The notes under the pieces were generated by a model, which had not been told where the DNA came from, ran no database searches, and worked only from the letters and a program-made list of their open reading frames with translations. DNA of 32,000 nt from Alkanindiges illinoisensis DSM 15370 (GTDB lineage Bacteria; Pseudomonadota; Gammaproteobacteria; Pseudomonadales; Moraxellaceae), in NCBI RefSeq assembly GCF_000619845.1, contig NZ_JHUX01000003.1, forward strand, positions 1,210,064-1,242,063, in the 5' to 3' direction. The position numbers were made by a program, and so were the translations under genes. Numbering within the stretch: the stretch's first letter is position 1; every line of letters starts with the position of its first letter. Shown one piece after another: positions 2,886-19,952 of the stretch.

Positions 2886-3326
2886 TTAGCCTTTATGCGC
2901 TTCAAGCTGTGCACCCACTCGAGCACCCATTTCCTTGCCCAGTGCAGCCAATGCATTAAATGGCCGGATCATCACTTCAAAATCCACGATCTTGCCCTGT
3001 GCATCAAAGCCAATCATGTCAATGCCTTTAAGGGCTTTGCCATCAACCACGGCACTAAATTCCAGCACGACCTGCAAACCATCATTACTTGCAAACTCAC
3101 GATGATAGGTAAAATTCTCGAAAATGGTAATTACTGTTTTAAGAATCAATCCTACCGCTAGCGAACCCGTATAAGGCCGGTGCGCCATGGGTGAACGAAA
3201 TACCACATTCGAGTCCAGCAGCTCAGCCAGAATGCTCATATCGCGGGTTTGTAGCATGTGGTGCCACTTTTCCAGTGAAGTAGCTACCGCAGGTTGAAGC
3301 TGGGCGGTTATTGCTGTTGTCGTCAT
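2886..3326 (-). CDS. NTF2/SnoaL-like fold protein (146 aa), downstream partner of fadH
   Basis: ATG at 3326 is preceded by GGAGAA. The size and the alternating beta-rich C-terminus are typical of the nuclear transport factor 2 family. The 190-aa track version would overlap the fadH stop and carries an implausible N-terminus. Confidence 0.6.
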   Translation of the reverse strand: MTTTAITAQLQPAVATSLEKWHHMLQTRDMSILAELLDSNVVFRSPMAHRPYTGSLAVGLILKTVITIFENFTYHREFASNDGLQVVLEFSAVVDGKALKGIDMIGFDAQGKIVDFEVMIRPFNALAALGKEMGARVGAQLEAHKG

Positions 3327-3429
3327 GCTTGTTCTCCCTGAACATTTATACCTTGTTTTTTGCCTGGAACTTGCCAGCGGGTTGTTAATATACCCGCTGG
3401 CATTGATCTGGCTGATTGGATTACGGCTA

Positions 3430-5502
<2,073 letters not shown>

Positions 5503-5583
5503 CTATTCCTTTATGGCGGAAATTAAAACGCTGGCGGTTGTGATCAGCACGATACGATTTCTTGAAAATGCCTGATCACAACT

Positions 5584-5599
5584 ATGCACTTTGTTGCAT
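5584..5599. promoter_or_regulatory. palindromic operator 1 (ATGCA-N6-TGCAT), putative PadR site
   Basis: ATGCACTTTGTTGCAT lies in the fadH/padR divergent intergenic region, downstream of the predicted fadH -10 element. Confidence 0.45.
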
Positions 5600-5615
5600 G
5601 ATTTGCTATGCCGAT

Positions 5616-5644
5616 TTTATAATTTATTTTCCATCACTATGCAA
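5616..5644 (-). promoter_or_regulatory. predicted sigma70 promoter of fadH
   Basis: On the minus strand: TTGCAT (-35, complement of 5639-5644), a 17-nt spacer, then TATAAA (-10, complement of 5616-5621). Confidence 0.4.
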
Positions 5645-5654
5645 CTGGTTGCAT
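5639..5654. promoter_or_regulatory. palindromic operator 2 (ATGCAAC-NN-GTTGCAT), putative PadR site
   Basis: Perfect 7+7 palindrome ATGCAACTGGTTGCAT. Each half supplies a TTGCAT -35-like hexamer for one of the two divergent promoters. Confidence 0.5.
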
Positions 5655-5677
5655 AAATTATTTTTACAGTATTTAAT
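5649..5677 (+). promoter_or_regulatory. predicted sigma70 promoter of the PadR-family gene
   Basis: TTGCAT (5649-5654), a 17-nt spacer, then TTTAAT (5672-5677). Confidence 0.3.
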
Positions 5678-5709
5678 ACTTTTTCAAGTTCACTCATTTG
5701 CGGTATTGC

Positions 5710-6255
5710 ATGTCACTCGCTCACGTCCTGCTCACGTCCTTACTGGAAAAGCCAAGCTCTGGTTATGATCTGGCACGCCGCTTTGACAAGTCCATGGGCT
5801 TTTTCTGGAGTGCCACCCACCAGCAGATTTACCGCGAGCTGAAACGCATGGAAGATCAGGGCTGGATTAATGCAAGCCCGGCAGAAGATGCGGGTAAGAC
5901 CAAGAAGAAAACCTATGAAGTGCTGGATGCAGGCAGGCAGGAATTAAAGCAATGGGTGTTGCTGGCGACTGATCCTTACCTGATCCGCGAAGAAATGGCA
6001 GTACGCCTGCGTGCCGAGGCCATACTTGGCCCATTGGGTATTGAGGAAGAACTCAAACGCCACCTGAAATTGCATGAAGAAAAACTGGTGCTGTATCTGA
6101 CCATTGAGCAGCGTGATTTTATTAAAAACAGTGTGCTTAGCCGCGAGCAGCAAATTCAGCATCGGGTATTGTTGTTAGGAATTGAAACGCAAAGAACCTG
6201 GATACAGTGGGCAAAGGACACCATTGCCCTGTTTGAAAAGCTGGATAAAAGATAA
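5710..6255 (+). CDS. PadR-family transcriptional regulator
   Basis: The winged-helix N-terminus MSLAHVLLTSLLEKPSSGYDLARRF...HQQIYRELKRMEDQGWI is typical of PadR. It is divergent from fadH. The ATG at 5710 is preferred over the TTG at 5698. Confidence 0.85.
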   Translation: MSLAHVLLTSLLEKPSSGYDLARRFDKSMGFFWSATHQQIYRELKRMEDQGWINASPAEDAGKTKKKTYEVLDAGRQELKQWVLLATDPYLIREEMAVRLRAEAILGPLGIEEELKRHLKLHEEKLVLYLTIEQRDFIKNSVLSREQQIQHRVLLLGIETQRTWIQWAKDTIALFEKLDKR

Positions 6256-6339
6256 GTTTCAGAGGATTAAAGCTCTAGCTTACTCTACCTATCTGATATT
6301 TTGGAATTTTGGTATAGTCAGACACTAAACCCCACCTAA

Positions 6340-6419
6340 CCTCCCCTTAAAAAAGGGAGGAACAACACGAACTATACGGATAAGTGAACTGTCACAAGTC
6401 TCCCCTAAAAAGGGGAGAC
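6340..6419. repeat. two related palindromic hairpin elements (REP-like)
   Basis: CCTCCC-cttaaaaaa-GGGAGG (6340-6360) and GTCTCCCC-taaaaa-GGGGAGAC (6398-6419) share a CTCCCCT-A5/6-GGGAG core in the same orientation. Neither is followed by a T-run. Confidence 0.5.
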
Positions 6420-6484
6420 TTAGAGGGGTAAAAGTTGAGGCATTATTTAATAAAAAATTTCACTTCAAACTTTCTTCAGGCTCA

Positions 6485-7153
6485 CTACTTAAAATAAGCG
6501 CCTTCTTTTTGGGTATGGTCAGTCTTATCAATCACACGACCCAGCTCGGGAATATGCTCTTTCAGCGTGGTTTCCACACCCTGCTTCAAGGTCACATCCA
6601 CCGCTGAACAACCCTGACAGCCACCACCAAACTGCAATACTGCGGTTAAGCCATGCTCGGCATCGTTGAATAGCTCAACCAATGACACATTGCCGCCATG
6701 CCCTGCCAGTCCCGGATTGATTTCTGCCTGCAATACATAAGCAATGCGTTCTTCAACCGACGCATCTGCACCCACACGAGGCACTTTGGAATTAGGCGCC
6801 TTAAAGGTTAACTGACCACCAAAGCGATCCTTGTTGTAATCAATCACGGCATCTTTTAAATAAGGAATGGATGGCGTGTCGATATAGGCCGGAAAGCCAT
6901 CATACTGCTGTTGGTAATCCAGTGTGTTCACTTCTTCCGGTGTGGCATAGGCCATGCAGCATTCCGCACGGGCAGTACCAGGATGCTCAACGAAAATGCG
7001 TACACCAATGCCAGGCGTATTTTGCTTGGCCAGCAAGTCATTCAGGTATTCCTGAGCGCTGGGCGTAATGACCATATTCGGGATCATTTCATCCGGTAAG
7101 CTTGTATTTTGAGTGGCTTGATTTTCAATCGTGGTGGCATTTTCAACAGACAT
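6485..7153 (-). CDS. nfuA: Fe-S cluster biogenesis protein NfuA
   Basis: An A-type-like N-domain is followed by a Nfu C-domain carrying [12 protein letters not shown] and FGGGCQGCS (the CxxC cluster ligands). ATG at 7153 is preceded by GGAG. The track start at 7192 adds 13 unlikely residues. Confidence 0.9.
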
Positions 7154-7372
7154 TACAACTAACTCCTGCGCAGAGGGCACATCATAGCGCATAGATGAGG
7201 GCTATGATCATCAAACACAAGTTTAAGTGATTTTTTGGGCAAAATGTAAGAAAACCCTTGGCAAAATACCGATCATCATTATCGGCTAAAAATGTAACTA
7301 GGCGTTTATACACAACAATTTGGCCTAAAAGTATTTTACTATTCCGTCACAATAACCATTAATCCGACTAAA

Positions 7373-7987
7373 ATGCTAGGTTTACCTTTTTCCCATACCC
7401 TGACCTTAATTCTTATTACCTGTCTGCTGTCTTTTATTGCGTTTGGCAATCGTATGGTGATGAATCGCCTGATTATGTGGCCGCCAGCCATGCGCCGTGG
7501 CCAGTTTGACCGCTTTATTACTTATGGCTTCGTGCATGCTGATGGTACGCATTTGCTGTTTAATATGATTACCCTGTATTTTTTTGGCCGCGCGATTGAA
7601 GCATTTTACCGGCCTTATTTTGCCGGAATGGGTTTTATCCTGTTTTATCTGGCGGCTTTGGTGGTGGCCATGCTACCCAGCTATTTCAAACATAAGAATG
7701 ACCCCAATTATCTGAGCCTCGGTGCTTCAGGTGCAGTATCCGCAGTACTGTTTGCCTATATCCTGTTTGCGCCGTGGAGCCTGATTTTTGTATTTTTCAT
7801 TCCCATGCCTGCCATTATCTATGCCTTGCTATACACGGCTTATACCGTTTATTCAGCACGGCGTGGACAAGACAATATCAACCACAGTGCGCATTTATGG
7901 GGTGCAGGTTTTGGGGTGATTGCTACCATTGCAATTGAGCCTCGGTTGGTACCGCGCTTTATGCAGGAATTGCTGCATCTTCATTAA
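7373..7987 (+). CDS. rhomboid-family intramembrane serine protease
   Basis: Polytopic membrane protein with the catalytic GASGAVSAV (GxSG) helix, the downstream HSAHLWGAGFG histidine helix, and FVHADGTHLLFNM. Confidence 0.8.
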   Translation: MLGLPFSHTLTLILITCLLSFIAFGNRMVMNRLIMWPPAMRRGQFDRFITYGFVHADGTHLLFNMITLYFFGRAIEAFYRPYFAGMGFILFYLAALVVAMLPSYFKHKNDPNYLSLGASGAVSAVLFAYILFAPWSLIFVFFIPMPAIIYALLYTAYTVYSARRGQDNINHSAHLWGAGFGVIATIAIEPRLVPRFMQELLHLH

Positions 7988-8122
7988 AATATTTTAGTGC
8001 CATTTGAGGTTAATTTTAAAACCTGAAAACAAGATTAGTGATTTGATATAGTTTTACTTATATTTTTATTCGATAGCCTTGTTCGTTTTAATTATTTTAA
8101 AAAGATAAACCGGTTGCCTACC

Positions 8123-8149
8123 ATTCCTCATATAATTTTTTAGAGGAAT
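8123..8149 (+). promoter_or_regulatory. hairpin sequestering the sulfatase Shine-Dalgarno sequence
   Basis: ATTCCTC (8123-8129) pairs with GAGGAAT (8143-8149) across a 13-nt AT loop. The right arm contains the only SD (GAGGA) 5 nt before ATG 8154. Confidence 0.3.
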
Positions 8150-8153
8150 ATCA

Positions 8154-9836
8154 ATGGCTACTTTTAATACAAAGCAGTTTCTGGTTGCAGGCCTGTGCAG
8201 CGTGGCTGTTGGCCTGACAGCGTGCAGTGATAATGACAAAAATGATCAGGCTAATGTGCCTGGTATAGAAAAGAAGAAGCCGAATATTCTGTTTATCATG
8301 GCGGATGATCTGGGCTATTCAGACCTTGGGGCTTTTGGTGGTGAAATCAATACGCCAAATATTGATGCACTGGCCAGCACAGGCCGGATTCTCACCGACT
8401 ATCATACGGCGCAAGCCTGTTCGCCCACCCGTTCGCAATTATTGTCCGGTACTGACCATCATCTGGCCGGCATTGGCTCCATGGCTGAAAGCCTTAATGA
8501 CAACGTGCGCGGTGCGGATGGCTATGAAGGCTATTTAAATGACCGTGTATTGTCCCTGCCGCAATTGCTTAAGGACAATGGTTACCATACCTATATGGCC
8601 GGAAAATGGCACTTGGGATTAACCCCGGAATATGGTCCCAAGGCACGTGGCTTTGAACGCTCATTTGTATTACTGCAAGGCTATGACCTGCACTACAAGG
8701 ACAAACCTGCCAGCGTGCAACGTCCCGGTACGTATACCGAGGATGGTCAGGCTGTTGAACTGCCCGATGGGTTTTTCTCTACCAATTATTATACCGACAA
8801 GCTACTGGCCTACCTGAACAGCAACAAGGACGGCAAGCCGTTTTTTGCTTATGCGGCCTATACCGCCCCGCACTGGCCACTTCAGGCACCGGATGAATTC
8901 ATTGCAAAATATAAAGGCAAATATGATGCAGGCTATGATGCCATTCGTAACCAGCGTCTTGCACGCCAGAAACAACTGGGCATTGTGCCAGCAGATTTCC
9001 AGCCTGCTAATCCATTAGCCACAGCCAACACACCGGACAAGGCCGGAAGCTGGAATGAGCTGACTGATGACCAGAAGAAAATTGAAGCCCGCAAAATGGA
9101 AGTGTATGCGGCCATGATCGAAAATCTGGATTACAACGTGGGCCGCATCATTACAGCGCTTAAGAAAAATGGCCAATATGACAATACGCTAATTTTCTTT
9201 GTGTCTGACAATGGCGCTGAAGGCTTTCCACGCAACGCTAATGGCTTTGACAACAGCCTGAATAATATTGGCAAGCCGACTTCTTATGTAAGTATTGGGC
9301 CACGCTGGGCTGAAGTCAGCTCTACCCCATTCCACTTATGGAAACTGACTGCGGGTGAAGGTGCCGTGCTGTCTCCAGCGATTATCAAGCTGCCCAGCCA
9401 GAATAAGGCTGAAACCATAAACACCAGCTTTACTTCGGTCAAAGATGTATCACCGACCATTCTGGAAGTTGCCCAGATCAAAAATCCGGGTAGCCAATAC
9501 AATGGTAAAACTGTGCATCCTATCACTGGCAAGTCATGGCTATCCTTGTTGCAAAACAAAACCAGCACAGTGTATGGCGATAACTTTGTGTTTGGCGATG
9601 AACTGCACGGCAATCAGTATGTGCGCACCGCCAATTGGAAACTGGAATTACAAGCACCGTATCAGGGTAAAAATATTCTGGGAACCGGTGACTGGGAACT
9701 CTACGATATTAAAAATGACCGTGCCGAACGCAACAACGTGGCTGCACAGCATCCGGATATTGTGGCAGATTTAAAAACCAAATATAGCCAGTATGCCAAA
9801 GATAATGGTGTACAGCCTTTCTTTGGTAAACAGTAA
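8154..9836 (+). CDS. Cys-type arylsulfatase, probable lipoprotein
   Basis: It has the sulfatase signature CSPTRSQLLSG (C-x-P-x-R formylglycine site) and the N-terminal metal-binding FIMADDLGYSDLG. The signal peptide ends in a lipobox-like LTACS. Confidence 0.9.
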   Translation: MATFNTKQFLVAGLCSVAVGLTACSDNDKNDQANVPGIEKKKPNILFIMADDLGYSDLGAFGGEINTPNIDALASTGRILTDYHTAQACSPTRSQLLSGTDHHLAGIGSMAESLNDNVRGADGYEGYLNDRVLSLPQLLKDNGYHTYMAGKWHLGLTPEYGPKARGFERSFVLLQGYDLHYKDKPASVQRPGTYTEDGQAVELPDGFFSTNYYTDKLLAYLNSNKDGKPFFAYAAYTAPHWPLQAPDEFIAKYKGKYDAGYDAIRNQRLARQKQLGIVPADFQPANPLATANTPDKAGSWNELTDDQKKIEARKMEVYAAMIENLDYNVGRIITALKKNGQYDNTLIFFVSDNGAEGFPRNANGFDNSLNNIGKPTSYVSIGPRWAEVSSTPFHLWKLTAGEGAVLSPAIIKLPSQNKAETINTSFTSVKDVSPTILEVAQIKNPGSQYNGKTVHPITGKSWLSLLQNKTSTVYGDNFVFGDELHGNQYVRTANWKLELQAPYQGKNILGTGDWELYDIKNDRAERNNVAAQHPDIVADLKTKYSQYAKDNGVQPFFGKQ

Positions 9837-9856
9837 CTTTGTTTAGCCTTTATTCA

Positions 9857-10972
9857 ATGAGTAACCTTTATTCAATGAAGAATCAGTGTTTACACCAGTG
9901 CTACCGCTTGATAGCACTGGGGCTATTTATATTTTCCGCCCAAGGTTGCCAACCAACCGATGCAGCCAAACAGCAGTCATCTCCGGATGTTGCTTTGGCA
10001 AAACCTTTAGCGCTGGGTAATCTGCAACATTGTCAGCGCTATACAGGATTGCCTGCCAACTTTGGCAAAAACCCAAAAGCAGGCATGGCGTATATTCCCG
10101 CGGGTGAATTACAAATTGGCTCAACCCAAGGCTATCAGGATGAATTGCCCTTAAAAAGTGGCGCAGGCACACCTGTTGCAGCTTTTTGGATTGACCAGAC
10201 AGAAGTTACTAATGCCCAGTTCGCCCAATTTGTAAAAGCGACGGGTTATATAACCGATGCGGAAAAAACAGGCGGTGGTGCGGTATTTATTGCGCCTAAA
10301 GCCGGGGAAGCCATCAGCAATAATAGCTGGTGGCATTTTGTCAAAGGGGCAAACTGGAAACAGCCTAATGGTCCCGGCAGCTCAATTAAAAACAAGGATC
10401 ACGAGCCAGTCGTCTTAGTGACTAAAAATGATGCCGAGCACTATGCCGTGTGGCTGGGTCATGACTTGCCCACCGAAGCCCAGTGGGAATATGCCGCAAA
10501 AGCACAGGGGCAAGCGCAATCACTGGAAAAAGCACCGCATGATGAACATGGCGCGCCTAGTGCCAACTACTGGCAAGGTGATTTTCCCTTACAGAACAGT
10601 CAGGCTGACCATTTCGCCGGGATTGCACCAGTGGGCTGTTATGCAGCCAATGCTTATGGCCTGTATGACATGATTGGCAATGTCTGGGAATGGACGCAAT
10701 CGCCCTATCACAATAGCCATGAACAGGATGCTGTTGCACAGAACCTGCCCGATGGACATGGCGGCAATCCTGCGCTGGCTCAAAGTCCAACAGCTCAACC
10801 TACTCAGTCCAAGACAATGCTATTTGATGCTACACCGTTTGTCATTAAAGGTGGCTCCTACTTATGTGCAGCCAATTATTGCGTGCGCTATCGGGCGGCT
10901 GCACGTCATCCACAGGAGGCCAATTTGCCCACCAGTCATGTTGGGTTTAGAACCGTATTAAATCTTAAATAA
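9857..10972 (+). CDS. formylglycine-generating enzyme family protein (SUMF1-type sulfatase maturase)
   Basis: FGE-sulfatase motifs are present: GNVWEWT, RGGSY-like KGGSYLC, HVGFR. It has a signal-peptide or lipoprotein-like N-terminus (LFIFSAQGC) and starts about 20 nt after the sulfatase stop. The start is ambiguous among TTG 9839, ATG 9857 and ATG 9872. Confidence 0.85.
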   Translation: MSNLYSMKNQCLHQCYRLIALGLFIFSAQGCQPTDAAKQQSSPDVALAKPLALGNLQHCQRYTGLPANFGKNPKAGMAYIPAGELQIGSTQGYQDELPLKSGAGTPVAAFWIDQTEVTNAQFAQFVKATGYITDAEKTGGGAVFIAPKAGEAISNNSWWHFVKGANWKQPNGPGSSIKNKDHEPVVLVTKNDAEHYAVWLGHDLPTEAQWEYAAKAQGQAQSLEKAPHDEHGAPSANYWQGDFPLQNSQADHFAGIAPVGCYAANAYGLYDMIGNVWEWTQSPYHNSHEQDAVAQNLPDGHGGNPALAQSPTAQPTQSKTMLFDATPFVIKGGSYLCAANYCVRYRAAARHPQEANLPTSHVGFRTVLNLK

Positions 10973-13487: not shown

Positions 13488-13619
13488 AGCGGCTGGTCTG
13501 ATCCTGCCTCATATCCTGAGCGCAAATCTGCTAGAATATTCCCCTTTGCTTTAGCCTGCTTTGTTTTGCCCTGCTTTAGTTTCAATCTTAATTTGCCCTA
13601 GCCGCTGTCGGAGTTGTTG

Positions 13620-16600
13620 ATGTCCACGCTTGCCACCCTCAAAGAATTACTGGCCAAACGAATTTTAATTATCGATGGCGCAATGGGCACCATGATTCAG
13701 CGCCACAAACTTGAGGAAGCTGATTACCGGGGTGAGCGTTTTGCCAACTGGCCGCATGATGTCAAAGGCAACAATGACCTGCTGGTGCTCACCCAGCCCC
13801 AGATTATTCAGGGCATTCATGCGCAGTATCTGGAAGCAGGCGCCGATATTATTGAGACCAACACTTTTAATGGCACGCGCGTTTCCATGGCCGATTATCA
13901 CATGGAAGATCTGGTGCCAGAAATCAACCGCGAAGCGGCACGCCTGGCCCGTGAAGTCTGTGATGAATTTACCCGCAAGAATCCCGACAAGCCTCGTTTT
14001 GTTGCCGGTGTTTTAGGGCCAACCTCGCGCACCTGCTCTATTTCACCGGATGTGAACAACCCGGCTTTTCGGAATGTGACCTTTGATTTGCTGGTTGAAA
14101 ACTATGTGGAATCCACGCATGCCTTAATTGAAGGCGGTGCGGACATTATTCTGATTGAAACCGTATTTGATACCTTAAACTGTAAGGCTGCCATTTTTGC
14201 CGTGCAGCAAGTGTTTGAAGACATTGGCCGTGAACTGCCGCTGATGATTTCCGGCACCATTACCGATGCCTCTGGCCGTACCCTGTCTGGTCAGACTGCC
14301 GAAGCGTTCTGGAATTCGGTACGTCATGGCAACCTGTTGTCGATTGGCTTTAACTGTGCGCTGGGTGCAGATGCCATGCGTCCACACGTAAAAACCATTT
14401 CAGATAAAGCAGATATTTTTGTGTCGGCGCACCCGAATGCTGGCCTGCCCAATGCCTTTGGTGAATATGACGAAACCCCTGAGGAAACTGCGGAATTTTT
14501 GCGTGAATTTGCCCAAAGCGGCCTGATTAACATTACCGGCGGCTGCTGCGGCACCACGCCCGAACACATTGCTGCCATTTATCAGGCCGTAAAGGACATT
14601 ACACCGCGCCAGATTCCAGAGATTGCGCCAGCCTGCCGCTTGTCTGGTTTAGAGCCATTTAATATTGAAGCTGATTCGTTGTATGTCAACGTGGGGGAAC
14701 GCACCAACGTTACCGGTTCAAAAAAGTTTTTACGCCTGATTCGTGAAGAAAACTTTAACGAAGCACTGGATGTGGCACGCGAACAGGTTGAAGGCGGTGC
14801 ACAGGTCATTGACATTAACATGGACGAAGGCATGCTGGATTCGCAAGGCGCGATGGAGCACTTTTTAAAGCTGGTTGCCTCCGAGCCTGATATTTCCCGC
14901 GTACCCATTATGATTGACTCCTCAAAATGGGAAATCATTGAAGCCGGCTTAAAGTGCGTCCAGGGCAAGCCGATTGTCAACTCCATTAGCTTAAAAGAAG
15001 GCTATGACGAGTTTGTGCAAAAGGCCAAACTCTGCCGCCGTTATGGTGCTGCGATTATCGTGATGGCCTTTGATGAAGATGGTCAGGCCGATACTGCCGC
15101 GCGCAAAAAGGAAATCTGCAAGCGCTCATATGATGTGCTGGTGAATGATGTGGGCTTCCCTGCTGAAGATATTATTTTTGATCCCAACGTGTTTGCCGTG
15201 GCCACCGGGATCGAAGAACACAACAACTACGCGGTAGATTTTATTGAAGCCACGGGCTGGATCAAGCAAAACCTGCCACATGCCATGATTTCTGGCGGCG
15301 TGTCCAACGTGTCCTTCTCTTTCCGGGGCAATGAGCCGGTACGCGAAGCCATTCACGCCGTGTTTTTGTATTATGCTATTCAGCAAGGCATGACCATGGG
15401 GATTGTCAATGCCTCGCAACTGGCGATTTATGATGACATTCCTAAAGAATTAAAAGATGCGGTTGAAGACGTTATCCTAAATAAAAATCAGGGCGGCTCT
15501 TCATCAGAGGCAGGGGGTAATGAAGCCACTGAAAAACTGCTGGACATTGCCGAAAAATACCGTGGTGGTGGCTCTACCGCAGCTAAGCCGGTTGAAAATC
15601 TGGAATGGCGTAATGAAAGCGTGGAAAAACGGCTGGAATATGCGCTGGTTAAAGGCATTACCGCATTCATTGATGTCGATACCGAAGAAGCCCGCTTAAA
15701 ATCCAAGCGCCCGCTGGATGTGATTGAAGGCCCGCTCATGGACGGCATGAACGTGGTTGGCGATCTGTTTGGTGCCGGAAAAATGTTCCTGCCGCAAGTG
15801 GTGAAGTCCGCCCGTGTGATGAAGCAAGCCGTAGCATGGCTAAATCCGTACATTGAAGCCGAAAAAGAAGTCGGTAGCAGCAAAGGCAAAGTGCTGATGG
15901 CTACGGTCAAGGGCGACGTGCATGATATTGGCAAGAATATCGTGGGTGTGGTACTGGGCTGTAATGGCTATGACATTGTTGATATGGGCGTGATGGTGCC
16001 TGCCGAAAAAATCCTGCAAAAAGCCATTGATGAAAAAGTGGACATTATTGGTTTGTCTGGCCTGATTACCCCAAGCCTTGATGAAATGGTATTTGTGGCC
16101 AAGGAAATGCAGCGTCAAGGCTTTAAGATTCCACTACTCATTGGCGGTGCAACCACCTCCAAAGCGCACACAGCAGTTAAAATTGACCCGCAGTATCATA
16201 ATGATGGCGTCATTTACGTGGCCGATGCCTCACGTGCGGTGGGGGTCGCCACAACCTTGCTGTCACCAGAAATGAAGCCAGCCTTTATTGCACAAACCCG
16301 TGAGGATTATGAAAAAGTTCGTGAGCGGCTTGCTAATAAACAGCCCAAAGCCGCACGCTTGAGCTACAGTCAGGCCATCGACAATGGGCTAAAAATTGAC
16401 TGGCAGAATTACCGTCCGCCTGTACCAAACCAGCTAGGCACACAGGTTTTGCGTAATTATCCACTGGAAAAACTGGTGCCATATATTGACTGGACACCGT
16501 TTTTTATTTCATGGAGTCTGGCCGGCAAGTTCCCCAAAATCCTGGAAGATGAAGTGGTGGGTGAAGCCGCGCGTGACTTGTATGCGCAAGCACAGGCCAT

Positions 16601-17387
16601 GTTGAAAGATCTGGTGGATAACAATAGGCTGGATGCACGAGCCGTATTTACCCTAAAACCAGCGGCCCGAATTAGTGCAGATGATTTGGTAGTGTATGAC
16701 GATGAATCGCGCCAGAATGCCACGCATACCTTCCATCACCTGCGCCAGCAGACTGATAATGTAAACCGCAAGCCCAATCTATCACTAGCGGATTATATTG
16801 CGCCTGATGCTGGATATGCAAAGCACTGCTTTGCCCAGCAGCAAGACCGGAGCGATAGCGCAGGTGTAATTACTGCCCCACCTGATTATCTGGGCGGCTT
16901 TACCGTATCCATTTTTGGCGCTGAGGAAATGGCGGTTGACTACCGCGCCAAGGGTGATGATTACTCGGCCATTCTGGTGCAATCTCTGGCAGATCGTTTG
17001 GCAGAAGCCTTTACGGAGCATTTGCATGAGCGCGTGCGTAAGGAGTTCTGGGGTTATGTCAGCGACGAAGCACTGGACAATGACGCACTCATCAAGGAGC
17101 AATATGTGGGCATTCGTCCGGCTCCGGGTTATCCGGCCTGCCCTGAACATTCGGAAAAAGTAACGCTGTTTAATTGGCTAAATACCACTAATGCCATTGG
17201 CACACAACTCACTGAGCATTACGCCATGATGCCGCCCTCTTCGGTGAGTGGTTTTTTCTACTCTCACCCAGAGTCGGATTATTTTAATGTGGGCAAAATT
17301 GGCCGCGACCAGTTAGAGGATTATGCCAAGCGTAAGGGCTGGAGCATTGAACATGCGGAACGCTGGTTGGCACCGAATCTGGAGTGA
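13620..17387 (+). CDS. metH: cobalamin-dependent methionine synthase
   Basis: About 1255 aa with all four modules: the Hcy-binding [11 protein letters not shown], the pterin barrel, the B12-binding [10 protein letters not shown] (DxHxxG) and the C-terminal AdoMet reactivation domain ([12 protein letters not shown]). ATG at 13620 is 6 nt after GGAG. The two TTG codons upstream are used by the ORF track. Confidence 0.97.
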
Positions 17388-17425
17388 TTTACGTTATTCA
17401 ATAATGCATAGAAAATTATTCATTG

Positions 17426-17454
17426 TTGAATAATAAATCATCAAGCCCTATGAT
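17426..17454 (+). promoter_or_regulatory. predicted vapBC promoter
   Basis: TTGAAT (17426-17431), a 17-nt spacer, then TATGAT (17449-17454). Both hexamers sit inside inverted repeats. Confidence 0.45.
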
Positions 17455-17487
17455 AGATATGACTGGTCACTATCATAGGGCTTTTTT
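17444..17487 (+). terminator. metH terminator hairpin, possibly doubling as a VapB operator
   Basis: A 13-bp perfect stem, AGCCCTATGATAG (17444-17456) with CTATCATAGGGCT (17469-17481), is followed by T6 that runs directly into the vapB ATG (17488). Confidence 0.6.
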
Positions 17488-17721
17488 ATGGAACACGCCA
17501 AAATTTTCCAATCTGGCCGTAGTCAAGCCGTGCGTTTACCAAAGGCTTTTCGCTTTTCTGGTGAAGAAGTTGCCATTAAGCGCTTTGGCAACGGTGTGCT
17601 TTTATTACCAATTAACCAACCGTGGCAAATGCTGGAAGAATCATTAAATGAGTTTGAAAGTGGCTTTCAGTTAGAGCGTGAAGCACAGCAGGGTCAGGAA
17701 CGTGAGGAGTTAGATCCCTAA
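17488..17721 (+). CDS. vapB: type II antitoxin VapB (AbrB/SpoVT-type)
   Basis: The N-terminus [23 protein letters not shown] is the swapped-hairpin DNA-binding motif of the VapB/MvpA type. The stop overlaps the vapC start (TAATG). Confidence 0.9.
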
Positions 17722-18113
17722 TGCTGATGCTTGATACCAATATTTGTATTTATATCATTAATCATAAACCGCCACAGGTGATTGAACGATTCAAGCAATA
17801 TTCCCTTGGTGAAATTGTGATTTCCAGTATTACCGCCAGTGAATTAACATTTGGCGTAGAAAAAAGTGGTTCAGCTAAAAACAAGTTGGCTTTGCAAAAG
17901 TTCTTTGCACCACTCGAAATTTTACCTTTTGATGAGCATTGTATTTGGCATTACGCGACATTGCGCAATTATTTACAGCAGCAAGGCACACCAATTGGTT
18001 CATTAGATATGTTGATTGCAGCCCATGCCCTGTCAATTGACGCAATGCTGGTGACTAATAATGTGGCTGAATTTAGTAGAGTGAATGGGTTAAAGATTGA
18101 GAATTGGGTTTGA
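17721..18113 (+). CDS. vapC: type II toxin VapC, PIN-domain ribonuclease
   Basis: [14 protein letters not shown] (first PIN acidic residue), SSITASEL, DMLIAAHALS and VTNNVAEFSRV resemble the enteric VapC/MvpT clade that cleaves initiator tRNA. Confidence 0.9.
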   Translation: MLMLDTNICIYIINHKPPQVIERFKQYSLGEIVISSITASELTFGVEKSGSAKNKLALQKFFAPLEILPFDEHCIWHYATLRNYLQQQGTPIGSLDMLIAAHALSIDAMLVTNNVAEFSRVNGLKIENWV

Positions 18114-18198
18114 GTTTTCTTAAGCCTCTAGCTAGGCCCAATTAAGATGATTATATAAAACAAAGTAAATTTTTAATATTCGGAATAATTTTTATATT

Positions 18199-19341
18199 AT
18201 GAAAAACTATATTAGCTATTTACCATTTGAAAATATTAAAAATATTCCGTCCAAGCATATTTCTTCATATGAATACATATTTTTCTTGCATGACCAATGT
18301 GCAAAGCTTTTAATTGAATATGGCTCTAGTAATATTGATGAAGTTGGCTTAGATGAATTAATAGAAGCTTACTCTATAAATTTTAAGAATAATGATTTCG
18401 ATATTGTTGAGGTTCTACAATTTTTTAAGGAGAAAAGCATAGATGCACCATACTTTCACTTCTTATACTCAAAAATTTTATTAGGTTTAACAGGCGATTT
18501 ATTAAATTTTATTTACGAATCACTTAAGTGTTTTGAAAAAAGAAAGTTTTCAGTTGCATATAGTTTACTTAGAAAACCACTTAAAGAAAATCTTACTTTT
18601 ATATGTTGGTTATTCAATAATTACGAAAATTTTATAGAGAAATTTGAACAAGAGACAGATAAAACTTTAAATAAAATTCATGAGTCAACTATAAAATCTA
18701 TTATTTTAGAGACTATTAATAAACTTCCTTTACCTGAATTATTTGATGCAGAATTACTCTACAACATGATATTTTCAAAGCAGCATCTTTTTGGATTAGA
18801 GATTCCTTGTCAAAGAAGTACACACTTAATCACCTCACACGGTAGTCACCTTAAAACAGGTAAAATGTTTATAAACTCAATATTTGATAATCCAAATGAA
18901 ACTGGTCAATACCAACCACTATATATCTCACTTCCTTACATTATGCTTTTTACATCGCATGTCATTTTTGAAGCATTTAATAAAATTATCAGATTGAATA
19001 ATAAAACCCATCAGCATTTCACTCTGACTTCAATAGCAAGCTATGAAAATTTATACTCTGATGCAAGAAAAAGACCGTTAACTAAATGGTGCGGCAAAGC
19101 AATAAAAGAATTTTTAAAGTGTATATATTGCAATAAAACTATTAATCTAACAAAAGAAAATTCTTTAAGAATGTTTATGACAGATAAATTAATTTGCAAC
19201 CACTGTCATACTCATTTAGATTTTCCCTTTTATTGGTTACTTGCTCAGACTAAAATTTCAATTACTAGCACTAACTCAGATGATGACAGCGCATGGAAAG
19301 ATACTATTTTAGCACGCATGTTTAAATCCACAGAAATATAA
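18199..19341 (+). CDS. AT-rich orphan protein (380 aa) with a C-terminal CxxC-x21-CxxC zinc ribbon, function unknown
   Basis: A single long uninterrupted ORF lies in a stretch of roughly 23-30% G+C (sampled lines). No competing ORF exists on either strand. It is Lys/Asn/Ile/Phe-rich. The motif CIYC...CNHC is at 19120-19215. Confidence 0.7.
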   Translation: MKNYISYLPFENIKNIPSKHISSYEYIFFLHDQCAKLLIEYGSSNIDEVGLDELIEAYSINFKNNDFDIVEVLQFFKEKSIDAPYFHFLYSKILLGLTGDLLNFIYESLKCFEKRKFSVAYSLLRKPLKENLTFICWLFNNYENFIEKFEQETDKTLNKIHESTIKSIILETINKLPLPELFDAELLYNMIFSKQHLFGLEIPCQRSTHLITSHGSHLKTGKMFINSIFDNPNETGQYQPLYISLPYIMLFTSHVIFEAFNKIIRLNNKTHQHFTLTSIASYENLYSDARKRPLTKWCGKAIKEFLKCIYCNKTINLTKENSLRMFMTDKLICNHCHTHLDFPFYWLLAQTKISITSTNSDDDSAWKDTILARMFKSTEI

Positions 19342-19394
19342 TATATAAAGATATAACTATCATTTGTAGATCAAAAACTTATGAAGATAAATAA

Positions 19395-19874
19395 TTAAAT
19401 TCGCTCCACAAACAGCACCCCATTCAAATGATCGACCTCATGCTGCACAATGCGCGCAGGAAAACCCTCAAATGTGGTTTCAACCTGCTCACCTTGCAAG
19501 GTGAAATAACGCACCAGAATCCGTTGAGCACGCGCTACAGTCCCACGCTCATCCGGCACACTCAAGCAGCCTTCTTCGCCCAGACACGTCTCTTCTGAAA
19601 ATTCCAGAATTTCAGGATTCACCATGACCACCGCAGCCATGTCCGGTGCATCAGGATAACGCGGGTTTGGCCGGGACGCGACAATAATCACCCGCTTGGA
19701 TACATACACTTGCGGTGCTGCAATCCCAACTCCATTTCGCTCAAGCATGGTGGCCTGCATCGCTCGGGCCAGTTGCTCAAGCCACGGTGTATTAAACTCA
19801 CTGGTAGCAACAGGCGCAGCTTTTAGCGTCAGGATAATTTCGCCACGCTTTGCAACGGGTAAAATAGCGCTCAT
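19395..19874 (-). CDS. def: peptide deformylase
   Basis: All three PDF motifs are present: GIAAPQ, EGCLSVP and HEVDHLNG. Confidence 0.95.
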   Translation of the reverse strand: MSAILPVAKRGEIILTLKAAPVATSEFNTPWLEQLARAMQATMLERNGVGIAAPQVYVSKRVIIVASRPNPRYPDAPDMAAVVMVNPEILEFSEETCLGEEGCLSVPDERGTVARAQRILVRYFTLQGEQVETTFEGFPARIVQHEVDHLNGVLFVERI

Positions 19875-19920
19875 CTATTTTTTGACCTTTGTTTTAATTG
19901 CTAGTTTTCCAATCTCTAAA

Positions 19921-19946
19921 ACAAAAACTCCCCTTGCGGAGAGTCT
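19921..19946 (-). terminator. probable rho-independent terminator of the 19953..20450 gene
   Basis: On the minus strand, ACTCTCC-GCAA-GGGGAGT (one mismatch) is followed by TTTTTGTTTT. Confidence 0.5.
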
Positions 19947-19952
19947 TTATGT

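Follow-up and report, generated by a model that had tools for sequence, protein, structure and literature searches.

What is the extremely AT-rich gene that lies between metH and def in Alkanindiges illinoisensis, and what might it do? The DNA analyzed here, hereafter the window, is a 32-kb stretch from this organism, and the gene in question, which we call gene X (or simply X for its homologs at other loci), is the open reading frame (ORF) at 18199..19341 on the + strand. It starts with ATG and encodes a protein of 380 amino acids (aa) that is 100% identical to WP_026470858.1, annotated as a hypothetical protein of Alkanindiges illinoisensis. The predicted product consists of an all-alpha body followed by a C-terminal C4 zinc ribbon, and the family and fold to which it belongs are undescribed in every library that we searched. 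The original prediction, made from the sequence of the window, had proposed an orphan gene stacked behind a vapBC toxin-antitoxin pair, with a possible role in defense or abortive infection (Abi). Our own answer regarding function is a tentative one, favored over its competitors though somewhat short of probable: gene X may encode a stand-alone, single-gene effector of anti-phage defense, abortive infection or exclusion between mobile elements, drawn from a widespread mobile family.

The nucleotide composition of gene X sets it apart from its surroundings, as had been noted from the start. Its guanine-plus-cytosine (GC) content is 27.5% compared to 46.1% for the window, which corresponds to a z score of -6.9 relative to 1143-nt sliding windows elsewhere in the 32 kb (mean 47.0%, standard deviation 2.8%, minimum 38.7%), and the GC content at third codon positions (GC3) is 22%, versus 52% in metH. 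Low GC content is also a property of X in other organisms; it falls short of the flanking DNA by more than 5 GC points at 38 of the 43 loci compared, which span many phyla, and the mean difference is -12 points. A search of 185,579 species, one genome each, recovered 39 X loci. X is found on four plasmids and on 3 of the 2.9 million viral contigs in IMG/VR, and no match was detected in 50,697 GenBank phage records. On one viral contig (L061; such handles denote individual loci) X adjoins primase- or integrase-like genes. In the Heliusvirales-like phage or prophage seen at L062 and L063 (7152-9011) and in a matching Spirochaete metagenome-assembled genome (MAG; L044, 9152-11011), the interval from nucleoside 2-deoxyribosyltransferase to VapE/helicase holds an insertion of two genes, one for a 251-aa protein and the other X. 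NatCom_11393, a related Heliusvirales phage, has just a 107-aa ORF at this position; X in the Heliusvirales-like element is a moron-like insertion. With its foreign composition, its patchy spread, the variety of its sites (mobile elements among them) and an allelic divergence that is incongruent with that of metH, gene X is a horizontally mobile accessory gene.

The gene is also far from being an orphan. A word-indexed search with the gene X protein retrieved 73 clusters, and an exhaustive profile search extended the family to at least 717 representatives at 50% identity, 349 of which had E < 1e-30. Relatives from Acinetobacter and Alkanindiges-like organisms share 62-76% identity with the gene X protein, those from Syntrophobacteraceae, Sulfuricurvum, Marinobacter and others about 40%, and a relative from Martelella 27%. 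Members occur sporadically in Acinetobacter baumannii, A. pittii, A. calcoaceticus, Stenotrophomonas maltophilia and Massilia, and further ones were found in MAGs labeled as Spirochaetes, Chloroflexi, cyanobacteria, Firmicutes and Planctomycetes. The 150 family members listed are about 330-385 aa long, or are fragments, and share a single architecture. Across all sources they are named either "hypothetical" or after the ribbon, and the helical body is covered by no Pfam family; in two members the Pfam matches are of the zinc-finger type alone. The gene X protein itself had no match in Pfam, NCBIfam, PHROGs or PADLOC. Pfam searches with 66 diverse family members yielded weak, sub-threshold zinc-ribbon matches confined to the C-terminus; at E <= 10, two family consensus sequences and eight distant members likewise matched ribbons only. 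PDB sequence searches, with either the single protein or a profile, returned matches at chance or ribbon level, further profile searches for distant annotated relatives produced only more unannotated family members, and a literature search via six member accessions found no paper. In line with the original prediction, the protein has no recognizable catalytic family.

Structure prediction gave a more positive picture of the protein. An AlphaFold2 model of the gene X protein, computed from a 40-sequence alignment, has a predicted local distance difference test (pLDDT) score of 85.6 and a predicted template modeling (pTM) score of 0.88, and shows an all-alpha protein whose helices number about 14 and in which each CxxC is followed by a small beta ribbon. 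For the S. maltophilia homolog, a second model (100 sequences) reached a pLDDT of 93.3 and a pTM of 0.92, and in this model the conserved loop at residues 205-229, which has low pLDDT in the gene X model, is ordered (pLDDT 89-94). Foldseek searches of PDB with both models, and of BFVD with the gene X model, returned a best E value of 0.4 and template modeling (TM) scores of at most 0.22. As modeled, therefore, the gene X protein is a compact all-alpha domain that has no detectable structural relative and is capped by a C4 zinc ribbon. The ribbon, C308-x2-C311-x21-C333-x2-C336, is encoded at 19120..19206 on the + strand and includes two short beta strands at residues 330-332 and 339-341. The CIYC-x21-CNHC motif of the original prediction is thus real and conserved (residues 308-311 and 333-336), although it ends at 19206 and not at 19215 as given there. 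Of 308 family members, 291 keep the spacing of 21 residues, and the two conserved CxxC knuckles, each followed by a predicted strand, mark a putative zinc site. The acidic Ser/Asp tail that had also been pointed out is present in the Moraxellaceae, but is limited to that clade.

Conservation was counted in 66 diverse sequences that extend down to 17% identity with the gene X protein, and a 100-sequence alignment agrees with the result. R125, H209, N226, F229, C308, C311 and C333 are invariant among the 66 (R125 in the larger alignment as well); C336 (65/66), D100, K126, P127, T212, T220, H24 and L123 are conserved in at least 95%, and D32, E107, K114 and H31 in 83-92%. The conserved polar residues form i/i+7 stripes on three long helices (H24/H31/D32, D100/E107/K114 and R125/K126), to which the loop at 205-229 is added. 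The first stripe lies within residues 24-32 (YEYIFFLHD; 18268..18294, + strand), which correspond to the family motif H-x6-H-D on one face of helix 1 (residues 18-44). The most conserved stretch, residues 100-131 (18496..18591, + strand), extends over helices 83-113 and 117-140; here D100-x6-E107-x6-K114 occupies one helix face and is followed by CFEKRKF and LLRKPLKEN, the latter containing R125 and K126-P127. The loop with H209, T212, T220, N226 and F229 (18811..18885, + strand) is a candidate for the active site or for ligand binding. The possibility that the His/Asp/Glu stripes represent an HD domain or a di-iron site was considered and set aside, because their spacing is non-canonical and H24, H31 and E107 are not invariant. 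Taken together, the gene X product is probably an enzyme or sensor that combines a new helical domain with a zinc ribbon. Codon 24 of gene X itself (18268-18270, TAT) specifies Tyr, whereas His occupies this near-invariant position in 64 of the 66 relatives, the sister species among them, and the activity of the Alkanindiges illinoisensis protein may be altered accordingly.

We also examined how gene X has been inherited within the Moraxellaceae. The sister species (L003/L015; metH 87% identical at the aa level) has the same gene order, metH-vapBC-X-def. Between the two, the nonsynonymous (dN) and synonymous (dS) divergences of gene X are 0.122 and 1.09, for a dN/dS of 0.11 that is close to the 0.105 of def, and dS in the flanks is 1.2-1.4. 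Gene X is under purifying selection, and since its dS matches that of the flanks it has been inherited vertically since the split from the sister species. The earlier claim of horizontally acquired cargo is therefore correct as to foreign composition, patchiness and occurrence at mobile-element sites, but the acquisition was not recent in this lineage. In four further Moraxellaceae contigs, L057 and L058-L060, where metH is 81% identical, gene X (72% and 64% identical, respectively) lies directly 3' of metH without vapBC, and the space between X and def is filled by variable cargo: DUF559, glutaminase, or MFS plus AraC genes. Because adjacency of metH and X without vapBC is the more widespread arrangement, vapBC was probably inserted later between the two genes and would not be part of the X unit. 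L057 and L058 (metH 3225-6911 / 3143-6829; X 7001-8149) differ in the cargo before def, and although their metH genes are nearly identical (dN 0.021), dN for X is ten-fold higher (0.196) and its dS is saturated. Near-identical metH beside divergent X points to allele exchange or to fast diversification at a hotspot, and from these comparisons the metH-def interval of the Moraxellaceae appears to behave as a hotspot of recombination or integration.

The AT bias of gene X is as persistent as it is extreme. GC3 is 0.18-0.25 in all Moraxellaceae copies (gene X, L015, L057, L058, L001 and L009), compared to 0.37-0.52 in the metH genes of the hosts, and the synonymous divergence between these copies exceeds 1 substitution per site. 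Because GC3 stays low despite saturated synonymous sites, the bias looks to be actively maintained and not just a relic of recent transfer.

An all-against-all BLAST comparison of the neighbors of X revealed no conserved partner across about 40 loci. The only recurring immediate neighbors were DUF4238 genes at three Acinetobacter loci and class II ribonucleotide reductase genes at two alphaproteobacterial loci; in addition, four loci share a small protein encoded two or three genes from X. In two A. pittii genomes and in Acinetobacter sp. TTH0-4, a 790-aa DUF4238(+SEC-C) gene precedes X on the same strand at a distance of 46-77 nt (pairs at L001 5568-9137, L008 5555-9134 and L009 5551-9137), and the GC3 of this gene is as low as that of X. 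A DUF4238 protein has been validated as an anti-T7 system consisting of a single gene (PMC9122126), and judging from their arrangement the two genes may constitute a cassette in Acinetobacter. In L009 the pair is followed by a 1698-aa LmuA-like/AAA_22 gene, and the proteins encoded near X outside the window, one or two genes away or in a few cases somewhat more distant, include, besides this LmuA-like protein, an 1816-aa Avs4/DUF626-like protein. In Pseudoxanthomonas helianthi (L029), a gap of 30 nt separates X from an upstream gene (8846-9925) for a PD-T4-6-like Ser/Thr kinase that ends in a cold-shock domain, and the same models matched a second kinase among the neighbors scanned. The L029 kinase gene is itself abutted by an ORF at 7731-8846. 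Other neighbors include HEPN_Cthe2314 and a weak match to DUF2726; PDDEXK_1 upstream of X, with AAA_21 and AbiEii further downstream, at one locus; IS481, ParE and HicB at another; and four integrases within two genes of X. An X locus on a Vibrio plasmid carries Abi, GIY-YIG and recombinase genes, and one on a C. botulinum plasmid carries Fic and DUF262 genes. The ribonucleotide reductase found next to X in two alphaproteobacterial MAGs is the B12-dependent class II enzyme, with X 31-65 nt downstream (L032 4628-8482 and L035 6124-9927), and it looks to mark a hotspot rather than to be a partner. That a large core gene forms the upstream border of X both there and in the Moraxellaceae, where it is the B12-dependent metH, is probably coincidence or again a sign of a hotspot.

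The defense or Abi role put forward in the original prediction, although unproven, is still the leading hypothesis, as judged from the accessory nature of gene X and its location near toxin-antitoxin modules, integrases and defense-type genes. In such a role, the helix stripes and the loop at 205-229 would converge on one buried pocket, either catalytic or ligand-binding, and for a pocket of Arg, Lys, His, Thr and Asn the most plausible chemistry would be phosphodiester cleavage by a nuclease or RNase-like enzyme employing Arg/Lys and His. The zinc ribbon would recognize nucleic acid or a phage protein, and persistent AT-richness would keep the gene under xenogeneic silencing, or at a tightly low level of expression, until triggered. 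The vapBC pair of the window is a neighbor and not a functional partner. In its boldest form, the proposal is of a one-gene immune system, acting by abortive infection or exclusion, with a new fold, a catalytic site of a kind not seen before that is made up of R125/K126, H209, T212, T220 and N226, a zinc-ribbon sensor, and AT-richness that is retained by selection and could hold the gene under xenogeneic silencing until infection; we regard this complete version as unlikely.

Several observations weigh against a conflict effector. The buried pocket is a prediction from the helix stripes and the loop, and no homology in the libraries above ties the gene X protein to any activity. In PADLOC-DB v2.0.0 the protein matches no family at E <= 1, and nine diverse relatives and one consensus sequence gave nothing meaningful in PADLOC either. 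Family members have a median isoelectric point (pI) of about 6 and a zinc-ribbon region that is only weakly basic, which is atypical of a strong nucleic acid binder, and gene X has Tyr24 in place of the near-invariant His. Stable vertical inheritance, as seen here, is less typical of fast-turnover defense cargo. Finally, by a raw tally, defense-type neighbors occur in about a dozen of some 45 X contexts, and many neighbors of X are plain housekeeping genes (metH, def, rpsF, ribonucleotide reductase, nitrate reductase).

Four other explanations were weighed against that of a conflict or defense effector, which we rank first. Next in order is a non-defense accessory of mobile elements, in which X would be an anti-defense factor, a helper in establishment or replication, or a regulator whose ribbon binds a protein of the host or of the element; phages, plasmids and islands would carry it as cargo, and some copies would stay behind in chromosomal hotspots. 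Its insertion into the replication module of a Heliusvirales-like phage or prophage is what such a gene would look like, as are the primase- or integrase-like genes beside it in L061, the integrases at four loci and the recombinases on plasmids; the near-neutral pI and the lack of any matching defense model fit as well. However, most X copies are solitary chromosomal genes with no recognizable element around them, X is as scarce among phage records and viral contigs as reported above, and Arg, His, Asn and Thr residues are conserved with a strictness more typical of an enzyme than of an adaptor. We consider this explanation rather unlikely, although it is the most serious of the competitors. 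An accessory metabolic or stress enzyme unrelated to conflict, for example a metal-dependent helical bundle, ranks third; its gene would just happen to reside in flexible parts of the genome. H24-x6-H31-D32, D100-x6-E107 and H209 could bind metal, X keeps a stable position beside metH in several Moraxellaceae, and the best, non-significant Foldseek rows include di-iron bundles (VlmB, aldehyde-deformylating oxidase and a desaturase). These structural matches are meaningless, however (E >= 0.4, TM <= 0.2), and the potential ligands H24, H31 and E107 vary within the family. No metabolic operon partner recurs beside X, and a bias toward AT as extreme and persistent as this one, combined with patchy spread, is atypical of metabolic genes, so that an enzyme of this kind seems improbable.

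Slightly less probable still is that X is a diverged HEPN/DUF5677-type (AbiV-like) Abi RNase with the LLRKPLKE helix as its signature, a resemblance that the original prediction had raised. The protein is all-alpha, is encoded by a single gene and occurs in Abi-like contexts; the invariant R125 of the LLR motif is followed by a polar residue at position 131 (Rx5N; N in 51/66, H in 3/66), and 1 of the 66 members matches DUF5677 at E = 0.012. A single match at this level is expected by chance in 66 scans, and the gene X protein gave no DUF5677 match at E <= 1; even at E <= 10 neither it, nor ten diverse members, nor two consensus sequences matched DUF5677 or HEPN. There is no conserved Rx4-6H in the family: R206 (K/Q/R) and R265 are variable, H209 is 84 residues from R125, and RLNNKTH, which had been offered as an Rx5H string, is not conserved (K/P/E at position 265, T/F/Y at position 271). 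Foldseek with two confident models found no HEPN structure, and the four-helix HEPN fold is not seen in them. The LLRKPLKE helix is a hallmark of the gene X family itself rather than a detectable DUF5677 feature. Least probable by our estimate, and very unlikely, is a three-gene module in which X acts as a co-transcribed effector or regulator gated by VapBC. Gene X shares its strand with vapBC and begins 85 nt beyond it; no terminator separates the two, X has no convincing promoter of its own, and the sister species has kept this arrangement. The pairing is nevertheless limited to the window and L003/L015: X directly follows metH without vapBC in L057-L060, follows DUF4238 instead in Acinetobacter, and has no recurrent PIN/MazE pair beside it at other loci, where 2 PIN matches were found among 113 neighbors. 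The composition differs too (40.6% GC for vapBC versus 27.5% for X). The proposal that gene X acts with vapBC therefore fails, and comparative context largely refutes the module.

The order of genes around gene X, metH-vapBC-85-nt gap-gene X-def, is as originally described. The upstream housekeeping border, metH, occupies 13614..17387 and is followed by an intrinsic terminator at 17443..17487 (+) with a 14-bp perfect stem and then T6 (-21.9 kcal/mol, z = -5.0). A consensus terminator scan missed this terminator because its loop is 13 nt long. It ends exactly at the ATG of vapB (17488), so that vapBC would have to rely on a promoter lying within the terminator or before it; one promoter-like site was noted nearby at 17426-17454. 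vapB (17488..17721, +) encodes a MazE/AbrB-fold antitoxin (Pfam MazE_antitoxin, 1.6e-8) and vapC (17721..18113, +) a PIN toxin (Pfam PIN, 2e-19); the two genes overlap by one base and form a type II toxin-antitoxin pair. The 85-nt spacer between vapC and gene X (18114..18198, +; 23.5% GC) lacks a terminator, and nothing in it makes a convincing promoter or Shine-Dalgarno sequence: promoter-like sites occur only at chance level, and the z score for folding is +0.68. When the upstream regions of seven Moraxellaceae copies were aligned, no conserved promoter emerged, and the sequence ahead of gene X differs among relatives. On the other side, a 53-nt spacer (19342..19394, 17% GC) separates the convergent stop codons of gene X and def, again without a terminator-like structure. 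Both spacers are thus as AT-rich as the gene and lack terminators, as the original prediction stated, and neither has structure beyond chance. def (19395..19874, - strand) is convergent to gene X, and a DUF2505 gene lies beyond it. An Rfam search of 17300..19950 returned only sub-threshold noise from miRNA families, including the eukaryotic miRNA mir-3747 (29.6 bits, compared to a gathering score of 63) at 17376-17446, over AT-rich inverted repeats after metH, a match that we regard as chance. A repeat search detected no direct repeats flanking an insertion.

If gene X is a conflict effector, it would represent a single-gene system whose fold is new and whose chemistry probably is as well. Its sporadic presence in clinically relevant strains of A. 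baumannii, A. pittii and S. maltophilia could then affect phage therapy. A confident model without structural relatives, together with some ten near-invariant polar residues, makes the protein a target ready for mutagenesis, and AT-richness that persists despite saturated synonymous divergence provides a clean case for studying selection on composition. Should the function lie outside defense, a still unannotated family of this size, with at least 717 clusters at 50% identity, would nonetheless deserve a Pfam entry. We consider gene X a good and well-defined candidate for experimental screening, but not yet a surprise.

Finally, we compared X with known systems that it resembles in part. VapBC is its neighbor on the same strand here and in the sister species, but X is homologous to neither component and does not co-occur with them elsewhere. 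Like the HEPN-type Abi proteins (AbiV/DUF5677 and Abi_2/AbiD), X is all-alpha, stands alone, occurs in defense contexts and has a conserved Arg and His; unlike them, it has no Rx4-6H motif and no match by hidden Markov model or structure, and R125 and H209 are on different structural elements. The zinc ribbon has two CxxC knuckles 21 residues apart and short beta strands, as do the C4 ribbons of Pfam Zn_ribbon, Trm112p, Elf1 and the C-terminus of eIF2-beta, and it repeatedly matches many ribbon models and ribbon-containing PDB chains below threshold, none reaching the gathering score. In contrast to these known ribbon families, the ribbon of X is appended to a helical body of 300 residues. The DUF4238 protein of P2-like prophage hotspots (Rousset et al. 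2022, PMC9122126) is not related to X in sequence, as an hhalign comparison of the X family with the Acinetobacter DUF4238 protein gave a probability of 0.1%, and X occurs elsewhere without it. Even so, both are encoded by solitary genes of low GC content in variable hotspots, and both have an undefined biochemistry. The kind of element to which X belongs is a familiar one, that of the solitary hotspot gene of probable conflict function.

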